Positions 7,943 through 52,762 of a stretch of 64,000 nucleotides of DNA are shown here, piece by piece; position 1 is the first letter of the stretch; each line of letters begins with the position of its first letter. The DNA lies in NCBI GenBank assembly GCA_028282905.1, contig JANQGW010000112.1, positions 189 to 64,188 on the forward strand, read 5' to 3'. The notes under the pieces are model-generated. The model did not search any database and was not told the origin of the DNA. It was given only the letters and a program-made list of their open reading frames with translations. The position numbers were made by a program, and so were the translations under genes. Source of the stretch: Sedimentisphaerales bacterium (lineage in GTDB: Bacteria; Planctomycetota; Phycisphaerae; Sedimentisphaerales; Anaerohalosphaeraceae).

Positions 7943-8605
7943 TTAGCCGGTAAAACCGTACAAATTGTGCAACCGGATGTACTCTATCACCGCTTGCGGT
8001 AATAAATCCGACGGAAATTGCCCATTCGCCAGTTCCAGGCGAATTTGCGTGCTGCTGATATCAATCAGCGGCGTCTGAACAACGTCACGAGCCAGTTTTT
8101 CAACCTGATCGGCCCTGAGTACCCCCATAAAGCGGTTAAATTCAGGCTTCGGATACCCTGCGCGATACATTACGGTAACCCGACACGCATCCAGCAATTC
8201 GGATACCTTATACCACTTGTCAAAATCGTTTAACTGGTCGGCGCCGATCAACCAGTGCAGGTCCGTGCCCTCTCCAAGCTGCTCTCGAAAAAAGTTTATT
8301 GTATCCAATGTGTAACTCGGCGCCGGTCGATTTAATTCACACTCGCTAACCGAAAATGAAGGATCATTTTGGGTTGCCTGGCGAATCATTTGCACACGAT
8401 GTTTTCCATCAACAGGCGAATCCGTTTTATGCGGACTGCGCCGCACCGGAACAAAGATCAACTGCCCGGCATTAAGCTGACAAAAGACATCGCGCGCGAC
8501 ACGCAAGTGCCCGTTATGTATCGGATCAAATGAACCGCCAAACAAAATGGTTTTTGCTTTTTTCAACACCGGCAATCTTAACAAAAAACTGTTAAAACCG
8601 CACAT
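7943..8605 (-). CDS. nadD: Nicotinate-nucleotide adenylyltransferase
   Basis: GGSFDPIHNGHL nucleotidyltransferase motif near the N-terminus plus a C-terminal ISSTQIR motif; 220 aa. Confidence 0.9.
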   Translation of the reverse strand: MCGFNSFLLRLPVLKKAKTILFGGSFDPIHNGHLRVARDVFCQLNAGQLIFVPVRRSPHKTDSPVDGKHRVQMIRQATQNDPSFSVSECELNRPAPSYTLDTINFFREQLGEGTDLHWLIGADQLNDFDKWYKVSELLDACRVTVMYRAGYPKPEFNRFMGVLRADQVEKLARDVVQTPLIDISSTQIRLELANGQFPSDLLPQAVIEYIRLHNLYGFTG

Positions 8606-9021
8606 GTTTTTTTAACAAGGCAAGGAAATTTTCTTAAAAATACAAAATTTTTTCAAGTTTTTTTCTTGCATGAAGAACTTCATAATAACGCGGAAAAAGA
8701 AAGCAATCACTTAAACACAATCGCTTACTTTGCAAAACACTGTAAAAAATAAAGTTACAAAATTTTGCACTCCAGCATAGGTTTCAATGCAATATTCGAT
8801 TTTCAGTTTTTTTTAAACAAACATACCAAACACTCTTAATACAGTTTTATATTGAAGGAAACTATCACTCGATAAAAACCGGCAACCTCATTAACAGGGC
8901 TGTAAACTCACTTTTTATAAAGGATTCGCATGAAATTTGTCGATAAAGGTGTATAATATACGCAATTGTAATTCGAACGTAAAAACGAAACGCCAAGATC
9001 CTTTGAAAGGAGGTGACAAAC

Positions 9022-9351
9022 ATGGCCAAAAAGAAAGCTGCGAAAAAGAAAGTCGCAAAGAAAAAAGTAGCTAAGAAAAAAGCTCCTGCGAAGAAGAAAG
9101 TTGCTAAGAAAAAAGTAGCTAAGAAGAAAGCTCCTGCGAAGAAGAAAGCTGCAAAGAAAAAAGTAGCTAAGAAGAAAGTCGCAAAGAAGAAAGTTGCTAA
9201 GAAAAAAGTAGCTAAGAAGAAAAAAGCAACGAAGAAAAAAGCTGCTAAGAAGAAAGTCGCAAAGAAAAAAGTAGCTAAGAAGAAAGTTGCAAAGAAAAAA
9301 GCCACGAAAAAGAAAGCAACCAAGAAAAAAACAGCCAAGAAGAGAAAATAG
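9022..9351 (+). CDS. Lysine/alanine-repeat histone H1-like (Hc-like) nucleoid protein
   Basis: 109 aa made almost entirely of AKKK/VAKKK/APAKKK repeats. The ATG at 9022 is preceded by AAAGGAGGTGA with 8-nt spacing, while the track start (GTG at 9013) lies inside the SD. A strong terminator follows. Confidence 0.8.
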   Translation: MAKKKAAKKKVAKKKVAKKKAPAKKKVAKKKVAKKKAPAKKKAAKKKVAKKKVAKKKVAKKKVAKKKKATKKKAAKKKVAKKKVAKKKVAKKKATKKKATKKKTAKKRK

Positions 9352-9383
9352 TGGACGATAAGTTCCACAAACAGTGGTACACA

Positions 9384-9425
9384 AAAGGAAGGTTTCTCAT
9401 CCACGTCGAAACCTTCCTTTTTTTA
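9384..9425 (+). terminator. Rho-independent terminator of the histone-like gene
   Basis: AAAGGAAGGTTTC (9384-9396) pairs perfectly with GAAACCTTCCTTT (9408-9420), followed by a T-run. Confidence 0.85.
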
Positions 9426-9541
9426 TGACATATCACACCCAAACACCCCCTATTTCATCGTCTATAGGTTATTTTCAGGCTTTTCACTCTCATACCCCCT
9501 CCAAAGTTCGCTTTTTTCGCTATTTTTTAGGCCTAAATACT

Positions 9542-9570
9542 TTGCAACCGGCGTACATTCGGTATATAAT
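9542..9570 (+). promoter_or_regulatory. Near-consensus sigma70-type promoter
   Basis: TTGCAA (9542-9547), a 17-nt spacer, then TATAAT (9565-9570). The next gene starts at 9754, implying a leader of about 180 nt. Confidence 0.6.
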
Positions 9571-9753
9571 CCCCTAAAGCTGTGTAACGTCGGGTCTTTG
9601 CGCAGTTTATGAGCGGCTTTGCCGCATCGCAGCCGGGTGGGATCAAAGGTTCGCCTCCACCGGTGTCTATTTGGCATGAAACGGGATTCATTGCTCGTAT
9701 TAGAATGAAATTAAGGAATTATTCGAGTAATCTCTAAATAGGAAGTACAAAAC

Positions 9754-11010
9754 ATGGCAGAAGATTTTTACACAATGCAGGAAGTGATGGAAAAACTGCG
9801 CCAATCCGAAGAACAGGTACAGGATTTGGTCAAGCAGGGCAAACTTCGTCAGTACATGGACTCCGGCAATCCTATGTTCAAGACCGAAGACGTCAATGAA
9901 CTGGCCGAGGAAATCGTCGGTATCGACATCTCTTCGACCGGTCTTGACCTGGGAGGTTCGGCCCTGGAACTGGCTGAAACCGGCGATCTTGACTTGGGCG
10001 GAGCAGACCTGGAATCAGCCGAAACCGGCGACGTTGAGGATTTAGTCGGCGACCTGGATCTGGGTGGGGATTTGGAAATCGCTGAAGAAGCTGAAGAAGC
10101 AGTTGGCGATGCGGAAGCAATGGATGCTTCTGAACTGAATCTGGCGGAAACCTCGGAAATTCAGTTGGAACCGGATGAAGAACCTGCTGACAGCCCCGAA
10201 CTGAAAGATCAAACCAGTGAAGGTGGCTTTGGACTGAGCCAAATGGGCGATTTGACCATGGCTGATACCAATGTCGGTACAGTTGGCATCAACATTCTCA
10301 GCGGCACCGAAGATGCTTTTAAGCTGACCGAAGATACGAAAGCCGAAACCATGTCGGCTGACGCCGAAGAGATTGAAGAACTGGAAAGCCTCGATGCCGA
10401 CTCCAATATGGAAAGTTTCGGCAGCGGTTCCGGTCTGCTGGACTTGTCATTACAAGCTGATGATACCTCGCTGGGTGCGGTTTTGGACGATATTCTGCCG
10501 GCTGGTGCTGAAGAGGCCGGCGGCGGAGACCTCCCGGTTGACCAGATTGGCATAGGCGATGAAGCGGAAGACCTGCTAGCCGAGCCGGCCATGGCTGAGG
10601 CAGCGGAACCTGCCGCTGCAGAACCTGCGGCTGCACCGGCCGCAGCCGGTGCTCCGGCGATGCCCGCTCAAAAAATGGTCGCGGTCGCAGAGATTGACCC
10701 TCGCACGAACCTGTTCGGCATTGCGATGTTCCTGCCGCTGGCAGCGATTATTCTGGTCGGTATCATCCTGACCGGTGCGATGCAGGGCATCAACCCGTCA
10801 CTAATGAAAGTTCTGACGGAAAAAGAAATCGGCCAAGTCGGCTTGTTCTGGTACGTGTTGGGCGGTCTGGCCATTTTTGCGGTTCTTTTCTCCCTGTTTG
10901 CTTCAGTCGGCGGTGGCACCGGCGGCGGAACCGGACGGGCAAAAGCTGCGAAAAAGACTAAAAAGCCCAAGGCTAAAAAAGAGAAAAAGCCTAAAAAGAA
11001 GAAAAAATAG
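9754..11010 (+). CDS. Membrane-anchored protein: N-terminal HTH (excisionase/MerR-like), roughly 250-aa polyacidic low-complexity region, two TM helices, lysine-rich tail
   Basis: ATG with AGGAAG 8 nt upstream. The N-terminus reads DFYTMQEVMEKLRQSEEQVQDLVKQGKLRQY. D/E-rich DLDLGG-type repeats follow, then TM segments LFGIAMFLPLAAIILVGIILTG and VGLFWYVLGGLAIFAVLFSLFA, then the tail RAKAAKKTKKPKAKKEKKPKKKKK. Confidence 0.7.
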   Translation: MAEDFYTMQEVMEKLRQSEEQVQDLVKQGKLRQYMDSGNPMFKTEDVNELAEEIVGIDISSTGLDLGGSALELAETGDLDLGGADLESAETGDVEDLVGDLDLGGDLEIAEEAEEAVGDAEAMDASELNLAETSEIQLEPDEEPADSPELKDQTSEGGFGLSQMGDLTMADTNVGTVGINILSGTEDAFKLTEDTKAETMSADAEEIEELESLDADSNMESFGSGSGLLDLSLQADDTSLGAVLDDILPAGAEEAGGGDLPVDQIGIGDEAEDLLAEPAMAEAAEPAAAEPAAAPAAAGAPAMPAQKMVAVAEIDPRTNLFGIAMFLPLAAIILVGIILTGAMQGINPSLMKVLTEKEIGQVGLFWYVLGGLAIFAVLFSLFASVGGGTGGGTGRAKAAKKTKKPKAKKEKKPKKKKK

Positions 11011-11181: not shown

Positions 11182-11964
11182 ATGAGCCGGAGCAAATGTT
11201 TAATCACAGTATTGGCATGCACAATGATTCTGTTCACGGTCGGTTGTGAATGCGGACAAAGCGTAAACGACCTGAAAGCCCAAAACCGCATCCAGCAGCA
11301 GCGTATTGCGGATTTGGAAAGTGAATTGGGCTTGTGCAACTCGGAATTACAGCAAAAACTGCAGGACTTGCAGAATCTTTCAGGCACCAGTTCGGCGGAT
11401 ATGGAAGCGAAGAACGCCCTGATCGCAGCATTGGAAGCGGACATCGAAAAGAAAAAAGCGATGATCGAACAGATGAAGGCCCAAATGCTGACGGCTGGCG
11501 CTCCCCTGCCGCCGGAAATGAACATGCTGCTTCAGGAATTCGCCAAAACCAGCGAAATGATCGATTTTGACGAGGCTACCGGGTCATTGAAGTTCAAAAA
11601 CGACCTGCTGTTTACCCCCGGCAGTGACCAGGTGACCGCAAACGCGGCAACATCGCTGAAATCGCTGGCCGGCATTATGACCAGTGCCGAAGCCAAACAA
11701 TTTGACATTGTCATCGTCGGCCATACTGACGATGTGCCGATTAAACGCCCTGCCACCAAGGCAAAGCATCCGACCAACTGGCATCTTTCCGTCCACCGTT
11801 CAATCGGCGTTATGACGGTACTGAACAGCAGCGGCATCGCTTCAGAACGTATGGCCGTTAAGGGCTACGGTGAATTCCGCCCGGTCGCCCCGAACAAGCC
11901 CAACAAAGGCGGCAACCCTGCCAACCGCCGGGTCGAAATCTTTATTCTGCCGGGACAATCTTAA
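11182..11964 (+). CDS. OmpA/MotB-family peptidoglycan-binding lipoprotein with an N-terminal coiled coil
   Basis: Lipobox LFTVGC after MSRSKCLITVLACTMI. The C-terminal OmpA-like domain contains IVIVGHTDDVPI and NRRVEIFI. I prefer the ATG at 11182 over the track start at 11083. Confidence 0.85.
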   Translation: MSRSKCLITVLACTMILFTVGCECGQSVNDLKAQNRIQQQRIADLESELGLCNSELQQKLQDLQNLSGTSSADMEAKNALIAALEADIEKKKAMIEQMKAQMLTAGAPLPPEMNMLLQEFAKTSEMIDFDEATGSLKFKNDLLFTPGSDQVTANAATSLKSLAGIMTSAEAKQFDIVIVGHTDDVPIKRPATKAKHPTNWHLSVHRSIGVMTVLNSSGIASERMAVKGYGEFRPVAPNKPNKGGNPANRRVEIFILPGQS

Positions 11965-12003: not shown

Positions 12004-12465
12004 ATGGCGGAACGAACACTGATTATCATTAAGCCGGATGCGGTACAGCGGCATTTGGTCGGTCAGATTCTCTCGCGGTTTGAAACCAAAGGTCTCAAAA
12101 TCGTCGCCGCCAAGTTCATGCAGATTTCAAAAGAGCTGGCTCAAAAGCATTACGCCGCCCATGAAGGCAAGCCGTTCTTTAAGGGCGTGGTTGAGTTTCT
12201 GTCCGCCAGCCCGGTGATGGTATTGGTCCTGGAAGCTGACGGCGTGATTGCAATGAGCCGCAAGCTGATGGGCAAAACATTCGGTAACGAAGCGGAACCG
12301 GGCACCATTCGCGGCGACTTCGGTGCCTGTCGCGGTTTTAATCTTGTCCATGGTTCGGACAGCCCGGAATCGGCTGAATACGAAATTGGCCTGTACTTCA
12401 AGTCCGAGGAAATCGTCGATTATACATTTGCCGATGACCACTGGCTCTACGGCAGCAACGAATAA
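12004..12465 (+). CDS. ndk: Nucleoside diphosphate kinase
   Basis: MAERTLIIIKPDAVQR...NLVHGSDS (active-site His) is the classic NDK signature. The ATG at 12004 follows AGGAGA. Confidence 0.95.
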   Translation: MAERTLIIIKPDAVQRHLVGQILSRFETKGLKIVAAKFMQISKELAQKHYAAHEGKPFFKGVVEFLSASPVMVLVLEADGVIAMSRKLMGKTFGNEAEPGTIRGDFGACRGFNLVHGSDSPESAEYEIGLYFKSEEIVDYTFADDHWLYGSNE

Positions 12466-50311: not shown

Positions 50312-52762
50312 ATGGCAAAAACAATGGGGAAATCGCTGGTGATCGTGGAATCGCCCGCTAAGGCGAAGACGATTAACAAGTATCTCGGCAGCAACTTTGA
50401 GGTCAAGGCCTCGATGGGGCATATCCGGGATTTACCGGCCAAGGGCATCAATGTGGACATCGAAAATAACTTCGAGCCAACCTACGACATTACGCCCGGC
50501 CGCAAAAAAATGGTCAATACGCTCAAATCCGTCGCGAAAAAATGTGAAAACGTCTATCTGGCGACTGACTTGGACCGCGAGGGAGAAGCGATTGCCTGGC
50601 ACTTGAAAGAGTGCCTGAATCTGACCGATGAAAACACCTACCGTGTGGTCTTTAACGCAATCACGAAAAATGCTATCCAGAGCGCTTTTGCCGACCCCGG
50701 AAAACTTGATATGGATCGTGTGCTGGCTCAGCAGGCCCGCCGGATTCTGGACCGCATCGTGGGTTATCAAATCAGTCCCGTACTTTGGAAAAAAGTCGCC
50801 CGCGGCCTCAGCGCTGGCCGTGTGCAGTCCGTAGCCGTTAAGATCATCGTCGCTCGCGAACGTGAGATCAAGGCCTTTGATCCGCAGGAATACTGGCAGA
50901 TTCCCGCCGTCTTTACCACAAACCTGCAAGACGACCTGGGCGGCGACTGGCAGGCGTTTCTGGACTCAGCCGAGGATGAGAAAAAGGGCCGCACTATTGC
51001 CCAGCAAAATGTATGGCTGGCTGAGCATCAGGCCTTCAAAGCCGATTTGGTCAAGGTCAACGGCGAGAAATTCCATGTCGATAATGAAACGCAGGCACAG
51101 GAAATATTCGCAAATATTCAGAAATCCACATTTACGGTTTCGGACATTACCACTCGGCGGGTCAAATCACGCCCCGCCCCGCCATTTATCACCTCGACGC
51201 TTCAGCAGGCCGCAGCGAATCGGTTGGGCTTTGCCGCCAAGCGGACGATGCGCATTGCTCAGCAGTTGTATGAAGGCATCGATTTAGGCTCAATGGGATC
51301 ATTGGGGTTGATTACCTATATGCGTACCGACAGCACGCATCTGTCGGGCGAAGCGCTGAACTCGGTCCGGCATTATATCCAAACTCAAATCGGTGCTGAC
51401 TATGTACCGGAAAAACCCAACTTCTTCAGCTCGAAAAAAGGTGCCCAGGAAGCTCACGAAGCCATCCGTCCGACCGATCCCGATCTGGCCCCCGATGACA
51501 TCAAGCCCTTCCTGAATGAAGAACAGTATAAGCTGTACAACCTGATCTGGCGGCGGTTTGTCGCCTGCCAGATGGCCGCGGCACAGTGGGATACCACCCG
51601 CATTGAGATCGACGGAACCACCGACAACTTCAACTGCCACTATCGCACCAGCGGACGGGTGCTCGTCTTTGACGGTTTCACAAAAATCTGGTCCACCTCG
51701 ACGGAAGAACCGCAACTGCCCGCCCTGTCAAACGGTGACACTCTGGCAGCAGTCAGTATCAAAGCCGACCAGCACTTTACCAAACCGCCGGCCCGCTATA
51801 CTGAAGCCTCGCTGGTTAAGGAACTGGAAAAGGAAGGCATCGGCCGACCGAGTACCTATGCATCGATTATCTCAACAATTCAGGACCGAAAGTATGTCGA
51901 AAAACTCGACCGCAAGTTCCATGCGACTGACCTGGGTGAAGTCGTCACCGATAAGCTCGAAGAGTGCTTCCCGCGGGTGATGGATATCGCCTTTACACGG
52001 CACATGGAAGAGCAACTCGATAAGATTGAGGAGCAGCACCTGAATTGGGTGGACGTACTAAACGAGTTCTACGGACCGTTCAAGGAAAATCTTGAAAACG
52101 CCGCCAACATGACACATGCTAAGGCTGAAACCCAGCCCAGCGATTATACCTGTCCGGAGTGTAAAAACCCGATGGTCTATCGGTTTGGCAAAAACGGGCG
52201 TTTTCTAAGCTGCGGCGACTACCCAACCTGTAAATACGCCTGTCCGTGCGACCGTGAAGGCAAAATGGTCGAGCAGGTCGAAAGTGAACACAAGTGCCCG
52301 AATTGCGGCAAACCGCTCATCGAGAAAACCGGCCGGTTCGGTGCGTTTTTGGGGTGTTCGGACTATCCCAACTGCAAAACCATTTTGAAAATGGATGCCG
52401 ACGGCAATCCGCTGCCGCCGCCCCCGCCGCCGGAACCGACGGGTGTCAAATGCTATAAATGTAAGGACGGTGAACTGGTTATCCGTCAGAGCAAACGCGG
52501 GCCATTCATGGGGTGCAACCGCTTCCCGCGCTGCCGGACGATCGTTAGCATGAAAAAGCTCGATGAACTGAAGGCTCTGCAGGCGGAAGGCAAGTGGCCG
52601 CCGGCCGATATCGAAGAAGGCAAGGCGATCGCCTCAGTTGCCAAAAAGAAAACAACCAAAAAGAAGACTGCTAAAAAGAAAACCACAAAGAAAAAGGCAG
52701 CTAAGAAAAAGACAACAAACAAGAAAACTGTCAAAAAGACTGAGAATAAAATAGACGAGTAA
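50312..52762 (+). CDS. topA: DNA topoisomerase I with four C-terminal zinc ribbons and a lysine-rich tail
   Basis: TOPRIM region LVIVESPAKAKTI and catalytic region GLITYMRTDS. Repeated CPxC...C..C ribbons are present. The tail reads KKKTTKKKTAKKKTTKKKAAKKKTTNKKTVKK. Confidence 0.96.
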   Translation: MAKTMGKSLVIVESPAKAKTINKYLGSNFEVKASMGHIRDLPAKGINVDIENNFEPTYDITPGRKKMVNTLKSVAKKCENVYLATDLDREGEAIAWHLKECLNLTDENTYRVVFNAITKNAIQSAFADPGKLDMDRVLAQQARRILDRIVGYQISPVLWKKVARGLSAGRVQSVAVKIIVAREREIKAFDPQEYWQIPAVFTTNLQDDLGGDWQAFLDSAEDEKKGRTIAQQNVWLAEHQAFKADLVKVNGEKFHVDNETQAQEIFANIQKSTFTVSDITTRRVKSRPAPPFITSTLQQAAANRLGFAAKRTMRIAQQLYEGIDLGSMGSLGLITYMRTDSTHLSGEALNSVRHYIQTQIGADYVPEKPNFFSSKKGAQEAHEAIRPTDPDLAPDDIKPFLNEEQYKLYNLIWRRFVACQMAAAQWDTTRIEIDGTTDNFNCHYRTSGRVLVFDGFTKIWSTSTEEPQLPALSNGDTLAAVSIKADQHFTKPPARYTEASLVKELEKEGIGRPSTYASIISTIQDRKYVEKLDRKFHATDLGEVVTDKLEECFPRVMDIAFTRHMEEQLDKIEEQHLNWVDVLNEFYGPFKENLENAANMTHAKAETQPSDYTCPECKNPMVYRFGKNGRFLSCGDYPTCKYACPCDREGKMVEQVESEHKCPNCGKPLIEKTGRFGAFLGCSDYPNCKTILKMDADGNPLPPPPPPEPTGVKCYKCKDGELVIRQSKRGPFMGCNRFPRCRTIVSMKKLDELKALQAEGKWPPADIEEGKAIASVAKKKTTKKKTAKKKTTKKKAAKKKTTNKKTVKKTENKIDE

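Follow-up and report, generated by a model that had tools for sequence, protein, structure and literature searches.

The helix-turn-helix (HTH) domain of RodZ binds a protein, MreB, rather than DNA, and RacA, the chromosome anchor of Bacillus subtilis, is fixed by a coiled coil that binds DivIVA. In FimV/HubP polar landmark proteins, a membrane anchor and a long, highly acidic stretch in the cytoplasm occur together with a connection to a peptidoglycan-binding module, and regulators of the ToxR/CadC/TcpP class carry an OmpR-type winged helix near the membrane together with a periplasmic sensor domain. Transcription regulators that span the membrane occur widely among bacteria (PMC10269533). 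The size of the chlamydial protein Hc2 (HctB) varies with the number of its lysine-rich pentamers (PMC2848022), and the KPAA tails of the Pseudomonas proteins AlgP and PhaF bind DNA, AlgP additionally associating with polyphosphate granules (PMC9239181). Here we describe two adjacent genes in a 64,000-nucleotide (nt) stretch of the genome of a Sedimentisphaerales bacterium (Planctomycetota, class Phycisphaerae; contig JANQGW010000112.1, positions 189 to 64,188), referred to hereafter as the window. The first encodes a 109-amino-acid (aa) protein made of lysine-rich pentamers (the AKKK protein) and the second a 418-aa protein with an HTH head, an acidic region and a membrane hairpin (the HTH-acidic protein). 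An earlier interpretation made from the letters alone, the sequence-only reading, had joined the two in a nucleoid-to-membrane module, in which the acidic membrane protein would be a tether, charge-complementary chaperone or antagonist for its polycationic neighbour.

The explanation that we favour, with a probability of roughly 0.6, is that these are two independent genes, chance neighbours in one small lineage, and that the 418-aa protein is a scaffold anchored in the inner membrane. Gene order was compared in 15 genomes of one genus (G000, the host genome, is a 5.7-Mb draft that is 93% complete) and in 10 other genomes of the order; G-numbers denote compared genomes, L-numbers compared loci and P-numbers homologous proteins. 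The AKKK gene lay directly 5' of the HTH-acidic gene, in the same orientation, in only six of the 15 genus genomes (G000, G001, G002, G005, G007 and G012). Inspection of 4-6 kb flanking both genes in G003, G008, G009 and G013 placed the AKKK gene elsewhere than the HTH-acidic gene, still divergent from nadD, with a HEAT-repeat gene beyond nadD in G003 and G008, a convergent uvrC-like gene 3' of the AKKK gene in G003 and G009, and a different gene 5' of the HTH-acidic gene in G003. The two genes were on different contigs in G004, G006, G010 and G014. No lysine-repeat gene was found within about 6 kb of the HTH-acidic gene at the 10 loci from five other families of the order, nor within 8 kb at any of the 88 complete HTH-acidic loci that formed the class-wide set. 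The gene adjoining the AKKK gene in G003, G008, G009, G013, G005, G012 and G007 was nadD. Gene order thus indicates that nadD is the stable neighbour of the AKKK gene and that the junction with the HTH-acidic gene is a lineage-specific rearrangement. Moreover, the stretch between the two genes holds both the AKKK terminator and a promoter-like site (TTGCAA-17-TATAAT), which argues that they are separate transcription units. The 402-nt spacer had no family match in Rfam, and a leader of about 180 nt (9571-9753) separates the promoter-like site from the start codon of the HTH-acidic gene.

These neighbourhoods decide largely against the nucleoid-to-membrane module, which we regard as very improbable. 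The charges of the two products are indeed complementary (-63 for the acidic region; roughly +64 for the AKKK product), six genomes of the genus have the genes side by side and co-oriented, and the AKKK protein and an acidic insert in its neighbour have expanded together in G000 and G005. Against this, the neighbourhood is not conserved elsewhere in the genus, in the order or across the class, nadD is what stays beside the AKKK gene, whose transcription unit is separate from that of the HTH-acidic gene, and the acidic region predates the lysine tail of the membrane protein, exists in lineages that have no such tail and bears invariant motifs typical of specific partners. The sequence-only reading had itself proposed synteny as the check on its module, and the lack of conserved adjacency that it named as refuting is what was observed. 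Co-occurrence of AKKK-type genes with the HTH-acidic family was considered as a further line of evidence and set aside as uninformative: poly-Lys mini-genes seem to be spread through the whole group, and genomes without the strict three-unit pattern still yield short KKKxxKKK matches. Generic electrostatic contact between the polyanionic tether and cellular polycations may nevertheless take place.

The AKKK gene can be described as a gene in its own right. Its open frame spans 9013/9022-9351 on the plus strand, and the ATG at 9022 was taken as the start because all orthologues begin MAKKK. The strong Shine-Dalgarno sequence and terminator claimed for it earlier were both recovered: GGAGG stands 8 nt 5' of the ATG, and a hairpin (9383-9421) with a U run, 32 nt past the stop codon, has a folding energy of -18.1 kcal/mol (z = -4.1). 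Lysine supplies 64 residues of the product, Ala 26 and Val 11, and its repeats amount to 20 pentamer-type units (VAKKK, AAKKK, ATKKK and KKKAPA variants). At least 10 related species share the frame, with an identical start (MAKKKAAKKKVAKKK) and end (ATKKKATKKK); its length, which changes by whole repeats, spans 35-118 aa within one genus, and the 11 VAKKK units of the window gene are written in six DNA versions. Because the termini are kept in these species despite the change in length, and the repeats differ synonymously, we judge the frame to be a real coding gene rather than a chance one; minus-strand FFLATFF open reading frames (ORFs), one of 179 aa, are its mirror image. The window copy and its orthologues (L003, L005, L033-L040) make up a hypervariable coding repeat whose more than threefold length range arises by gain and loss of 15-nt units. 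The longest proteins are those of G000 (109 aa) and its sister G005 (118 aa), with 35-68 aa elsewhere.

The likeness of the AKKK protein to Hc1, Hc2 and H1-type proteins, which the sequence-only reading had stressed, holds for composition and repeats and fails at the level of family membership. The protein scored 22.2 bits against Pfam HC2 (PF07382; cut-off 40), 19.2 bits against the H1-like NCBIfam NF038052 (cut-off 135) and 21.9 bits against NF038053, the Burkholderia-type histone H1-like family (cut-off 80). Since it falls below the curated threshold of every named family, we place it outside the Hc2/H1 families: it would work like such proteins and is no member of them, and the likeness is one of composition, not of demonstrable homology. 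It resembles chlamydial Hc2 in its lysine-rich pentamers and in a copy number that varies among close relatives, and differs from Hc2 and from the H1-like proteins of Bordetella and Burkholderia in having no folded domain and in being much shorter (35-118 aa in the genus). As an almost pure polycation, it would act like the tail of histone H1 or of chlamydial Hc2. Its composition also resembles that of the AlgP and PhaF KPAA tails, by analogy with which binding to DNA or polyphosphate would be expected. Judged by composition alone, the AKKK protein would most probably coat DNA or else a different polyanion of the cell, for example polyphosphate or RNA.

All the parts that had been listed for the 418-aa protein are present: HTH, acidic region, two transmembrane (TM) helices and basic tail (Table 1). 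For the N-terminal head, Pfam HTH_17 (PF12728) matched residues 5-53 with E = 3.9e-5 and 24.3 bits, under its gathering cut-off of 27, and some homologues carry a precomputed PF12728 match; TIGR01764 gave 15.9 bits against a cut-off of 28.8. In AlphaFold (AF2) models, run with 27 and with 102 aligned sequences, the head has the order beta-alpha-alpha-beta-beta-alpha (strand 5-7, helices 8-15 and 19-27, strands 33-36 and 39-43, helix 44-61). The best Foldseek matches were BldC, Xis, GlnR and RacA, with TM-scores of 0.56-0.76 relative to the target, in agreement with the excisionase/MerR-like HTH proposed from the letters. BldC (6amk) superposed with a root-mean-square deviation of 1.5 A over 47 residues and a TM-score of 0.76; the others included mycobacteriophage Xis (4j2n) and RacA (5i44), the latter with 27-31% identity over about 50 residues. 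Sequence searches of the PDB with the family profile and with the HTH alone returned nothing usable. A MerR-type dimerisation coiled coil or effector domain is not predicted after the winged helix, residues 59-318 being disordered.

Such a head might bind DNA, though this is doubtful, because it is acidic and several consensus basic positions are lost in the window lineage. The net charge of residues 1-58 is -8 in the window protein, as compared with a family median of -2 (range -11 to +2). Helix 2 begins S/T-E-E/D-E/Q, and the basic positions of the family consensus in helix 2 and the wing are K17, K/R23, R32, R35, K39 and K43. By analogy with the HTH of RodZ, a protein-binding role is equally plausible. 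These features bear on the possibility that the 418-aa protein is a membrane-bound one-component regulator with the logic of ToxR or CadC, its HTH sitting on an operator, for example that of the lipoprotein gene downstream, and its membrane part or the lipoprotein sensing the envelope. The MerR/Xis-type DNA-binding fold, the consensus basic residues, the frequent presence of an envelope gene as neighbour and the wide occurrence of transmembrane transcription regulators in bacteria (PMC10269533) would all fit; like the ToxR/CadC/TcpP class, the window protein has a DNA-binding-type domain and a TM segment in one chain. We nevertheless consider a regulator unlikely. Besides being acidic, the HTH is carried at the tip of a 140-460-aa polyanionic linker, by which DNA would be repelled, and a 19-aa loop takes the place of a sensor domain: the 418-aa protein has no Pfam Trans_reg_C match and no periplasmic domain. 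Presence as a single copy throughout the class, with variable neighbours, is also more in keeping with a structural role than with regulation of nearby genes.

The acidic region (residues 59-318) has 68 acidic and five basic residues, a net charge of -63, and was disordered in AF2, with a predicted local distance difference test (pLDDT) score of about 45-54. It had been described as some 250 aa of DLDLGG-type repeats; the extent and the acidity stand, and the DLDLGG repeats cover only about residues 60-125, a lineage insert that was restricted to the window protein and to P0002, P0004 and P0008 in the alignment of 27 close homologues (A1). A1 and a second alignment, of 102 diverse sequences, revealed six blocks: the winged HTH, the short element LxLEETxEIxLEPDE, motif A, motif B, the TM hairpin and a Lys-rich tail that some family members have. 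The sequence between the blocks is acidic and disordered, and its length varies from 137 to 459 aa. Motif A retains G178, D194 and T199 in 90% or more of the 102 sequences. Motif B (GSGSGLLDLSLQADDTSLG), which takes the form LD.D.NLES.GSGSGLLDLSLQADDTSLGA.LD.I, has 12 invariant columns in the same 102 sequences (G225, G227-L231 and D236-G241). These invariant columns suggest that motif B serves a specific partner, which a generic polyanion would not explain. Resemblances of motif B to a clathrin box, to clamp-binding motifs and to the SSB tip were look-alikes and were rejected as unsupported.

The region C-terminal to the motifs would hold the protein in the inner membrane. AF2 placed helices at 316-344 and 364-386, arranged as a hairpin, with pLDDT 78-85. 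There is no signal peptide; a polyanion of 318 residues precedes TM1, the loop between the helices carries no net charge, and the tail that follows TM2 has 16 basic residues and one acidic. From the missing signal peptide, the helical hairpin and the +15 tail past TM2 we infer, by the positive-inside rule, that head, acidic tether and tail are all cytoplasmic, as had been predicted for the HTH and the basic tail. In single-TM relatives from other classes, a basic stretch often stands immediately N-terminal to the TM segment, for example RISRSARLRAMTIKKKRGH, and these proteins would therefore have the same orientation as the window protein.

The 418-aa protein belongs to an unnamed, uncharacterised single-copy family, a member of which turned up in each Phycisphaerae genome that was searched with the family profile. 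A homologue was found in 40 of 41 related genomes. A back-translated strict motif-B pattern was searched for in 29 genomes of the class and 372 of other classes of the phylum, as classified by GTDB: it occurred in 20 of the former, exactly once each, and in none of the latter. Five of the nine pattern-negative class genomes were then searched with the family profile, and all five had a full-length member (E = 1e-37 to 1e-70), as did 14 of 14 class genomes in a separate, wider profile search. A phmmer search with residues 149-255 against 1.84 billion cluster representatives gave only 258 matches; nine of the ten inspected had the same full-length architecture, and the tenth was an odd ORF that stops just past motif B. 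In a scan of one genome per species, the motif-B pattern was found in metagenome-assembled genomes (MAGs) labelled Phycisphaerales, Tepidisphaerales, Sedimentisphaerales and Anaerohalosphaeraceae. It was also seen in several public MAGs labelled Pirellulales, Isosphaeraceae or Planctomycetales (among L068-L122), in conflict with the GTDB-based result; these labels may be wrong.

Outside the class, the wider profile search covered 187 Planctomycetota genomes, of which 143 had a match, usually a single one that spans just the head and the start of the linker. Seven such relatives were read (G108, G196, which is Lacunimicrobium album, G159, G053, G222, G066 and G190; L170-L176), and all seven had an HTH, an acidic linker and one C-terminal TM segment. 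Relatives from Planctomycetaceae have linkers of 500-560 aa with SDSDV(R/K)L and SGISL repeats, and NCBI names the non-class relatives merely 'helix-turn-helix domain-containing protein'. As far as these sequences indicate, the plan of HTH, acidic linker and TM segment is phylum-wide, and motif B and the second TM helix are specific to Phycisphaerae. The Lys tail was absent from family members of other orders, and the members examined from three other families of the class end VGKAxDR, without it. A literature search found no described Planctomycetota protein of the HTH-acidic-TM architecture.

The gene immediately downstream encodes a lipoprotein of about 260 aa, with a PF00691 score of 51.7 bits against a cut-off of 27.2 and a lipobox L-x-G-C conserved in all 15 orthologues inspected. 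It lay 3' of the HTH-acidic gene at 16 of 16 loci of the order, representing five families. Among the 74 class-wide loci with enough flank for a count, it was the commonest downstream neighbour (27 loci, including 15 in which the HTH-acidic protein has no Lys tail), followed by psd at 14. These two genes are separated by anything between about 20 and some 500 nt, and the 171 nt of the window copy contain no terminator-like site. The gene ndk followed the lipoprotein gene in eight of 15 related loci; nothing else was conserved around the pair at the loci of the order. A link to the lipoprotein thus has much stronger support than one to the AKKK gene, is not obligatory, and any physical complex of the two products is a matter of conjecture from gene order. 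NCBIfam MotB/TssL-OmpA-like models also matched the lipoprotein, and a role as a MotB stator was considered and rejected: the N-terminus is a cleavable lipoprotein signal without the proton-carrying Asp, MotB/MotD models gave 84-101 bits against cut-offs of 283-301, and the upstream HTH-acidic protein, with two TM helices and no MotA/ExbB match, does not qualify as a MotA-like partner. At L041, L043, L044 and L046 (families f9 and f11), psd (phosphatidylserine decarboxylase, with an LGST motif) lies 3' of the HTH-acidic gene, and a metallophosphoesterase gene lies 5' in three of them.

Table 1. Coordinates in the window of the AKKK and HTH-acidic genes, their parts and signals, and the genes around them.
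Feature	Position	Strand	Details
nadD-like nucleotidyltransferase gene	7943..8605	-	Divergent from AKKK gene; Pfam CTP_transf_like E=6.4e-26
Promoter-like site 5' of AKKK gene	8930..8957	+	ATGAAA-16-TATAAT, 10/12 matches; consensus match alone
Shine-Dalgarno GGAGG of AKKK gene	9009..9013	+	Read in sequence, 8 nt 5' of ATG 9022
AKKK gene	9022..9351	+	109-aa poly-lysine pentamer-repeat protein, 59% Lys
Intrinsic terminator of AKKK gene	9383..9425	+	14-bp stem then U run
Promoter-like site of HTH-acidic gene	9542..9570	+	TTGCAA-17-TATAAT, 10/12 matches
HTH-acidic gene	9754..11010	+	418-aa protein: HTH, acidic intrinsically disordered region, two TM helices, poly-Lys tail
Winged helix-turn-helix, residues 1-55	9754..9918	+	AF2 pLDDT ~94; MerR/excisionase fold
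DLDLGG-type acidic repeat insert, residues 60-125	9931..10128	+	Lineage-specific
Motif A, residues 155-199	10216..10350	+	SEGGFGLSQMGDL..ADTNVGTVGINILSGTED..LTEDTKAET; many invariant columns in A1
Motif B, residues 213-249	10390..10500	+	..GSGSGLLDLSLQADDTSLGAVLDDILP; family signature
TM hairpin (TM1 319-345, 19-aa loop, TM2 365-388)	10708..10917	+	Predicted by hydropathy
Gly-rich spacer and poly-Lys tail, residues 389-418	10918..11007	+	Net +15
Lipoprotein gene	11182..11964	+	Coiled coil and OmpA/MotB-type peptidoglycan-binding domain; Pfam OmpA
ndk	12004..12465	+	Pfam NDK E=4e-53; often third in row

Lysine-dense segments are rare in the host genome: only 15 ORFs of G000 have at least 10 Lys in 20 residues, and the most K-dense 20-aa stretch of all is the tail of the HTH-acidic protein. 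Besides the AKKK and HTH-acidic genes, those identified by Pfam were TopA, a DksA-like protein and a TfoX_N protein. TopA (50312-52762, plus strand) has Toprim and Topoisom_bac domains and three Zn ribbons, and its KKKTTKKKTAKKKTTKKKAAKKK tail lies at about 52643-52711. Similar lysine tails had been reported in the window for TopA and ExbB; that of TopA was confirmed, and ExbB has a mixed K/R basic tail, not a poly-Lys one. A 503-aa protein (C232:38035-39546), likely a trigger factor to judge from its sequence, shares the KKKTT repeat of the TopA tail. In G000 such tails appear mostly to mark proteins that work on nucleic acids or the ribosome, and because they mostly sit on nucleic-acid-associated proteins, the tail of the membrane protein would, by analogy, most likely contact nucleic acid.

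Two further proteins of G000 carry related segments. The DksA/TraR-type protein encoded at C24:6755-7597 (minus strand; zf-dskA_traR E=1.2e-7) joins a Lys-rich N-terminal part of about 100 aa and a poly-acidic C-terminus in one chain. An 80-aa protein (C15:12957-13199, minus strand) has an MAKKKAAKKKVAKKKATKKK N-terminal tail nearly identical to the start of the AKKK protein, followed by a helical domain of about 55 aa; it had no match in Pfam, and may be a tailed bacterial histone.

Taken with the conservation of the family, its architecture makes a membrane-anchored scaffold or tether the most likely reading of the 418-aa protein. On this proposal, the C-terminal helical hairpin would hold the protein in the inner membrane, and a long, disordered polyanionic tether would project into the cytoplasm, bearing two strongly conserved short linear motifs and ending in a MerR/Xis-type winged helix. 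Winged helix and motifs would bind a specific partner, protein or DNA. In this order, the acquired poly-lysine tail beside the membrane would probably contact nucleic acid, and the HTH-acidic protein and the peptidoglycan-binding lipoprotein might jointly link the cytoplasmic partner to the cell envelope. Such joint work is suggested by the position of the lipoprotein gene, which is a fixed downstream neighbour in the order.

Several observations weigh against this proposal and against the independence of the two genes. G000 and G005, which have the longest AKKK proteins, also encode two of the four known DLDLGG-insert proteins, as charge matching would lead one to expect; this joint expansion happened once in evolution, which is too little to sustain a case for charge matching. 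Whether 27 or 102 sequences were supplied, the acidic region stayed disordered in AlphaFold, with no motif docked on either the HTH or the TM hairpin, and no clue to a partner emerged. Some other gene stands downstream of the HTH-acidic gene at 33 of the 74 class-wide loci, and none of the six loci examined from three further families of the class had the lipoprotein gene as neighbour, psd taking that place at four. The lipoprotein gene is thus not a universal neighbour, so that a physical complex with the HTH-acidic protein is conjectural, and a periplasmic loop of just 19 residues would offer the lipoprotein little surface for contact.

A more specific alternative, also unlikely in our estimation, is that the family supplies an adaptor for the cytoskeleton, division or chromosome segregation in bacteria without FtsZ, its HTH and motifs drawing to the membrane a protein such as ParA/ParB, FtsK or, in the manner of RodZ, MreB. 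MreB was found in G000 (452 bits), FtsZ and RodZ_C were not, and the two HTH_25 matches in that genome are LexA/Xre-like rather than RodZ. A cytoplasmic N-terminal HTH joined to a membrane anchor is what the window protein has in common with RodZ, and the family is single-copy and class-wide with a relative in most other Planctomycetota. No sequence relation to RodZ was found, however: the window HTH is of the HTH_17/MerR-like kind, not the Xre-type HTH_25; there are two TM helices, the linker is acidic, not basic, and the 418-aa protein had no Pfam match to HTH_25 or RodZ_C, the latter going undetected in the whole of G000. MreB was present in 15 of 15 Planctomycetota genomes checked, including five that had no HTH-family match, and since it occurs with or without the family, its phyletic pattern neither supports nor refutes a link. 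The head shares its small winged-HTH fold with RacA, BldC and Xis, and in RacA, likewise, such a domain stands at the end of an envelope-fixed protein. The window protein differs from all three in its acidic head and in a 260-aa polyanionic motif linker that has no counterpart in them, and from RacA in being anchored by a TM hairpin. FimV/HubP is similar in its anchor, its acidic cytoplasmic region and, by way of the neighbouring gene, its peptidoglycan-binding module; here that module belongs to a separate, only sometimes adjacent lipoprotein, and no LysM, FimV C-terminal motif or sequence similarity was found.

For the two genes of the window, charge-complementary neighbours are no evidence of a module, and the poly-lysine mini-genes of Phycisphaerae are to be treated as free-standing. 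Of the two products, the acidic membrane protein holds the greater interest, with its modular plan and nearly invariant short motif. At its boldest, and we regard this as improbable, the HTH-acidic protein and its single-TM relatives might form a phylum-specific membrane adaptor that couples the chromosome, or an MreB- or Par-type machine, to the envelope in the absence of FtsZ, through the lipoprotein to peptidoglycan in this order, with GSGSGLLDL..DDTSLG as the docking site. Nucleoid organisation and FtsZ-less division in Planctomycetota are still open questions (PMC5147048, PMC6952346). Because it is single-copy in every profiled Phycisphaerae genome, has recognisable relatives in most other Planctomycetota and combines a DNA-binding-type head, a tether with invariant motifs and a membrane anchor, the family offers a concrete, cheap candidate for localisation and interaction studies on division without FtsZ.

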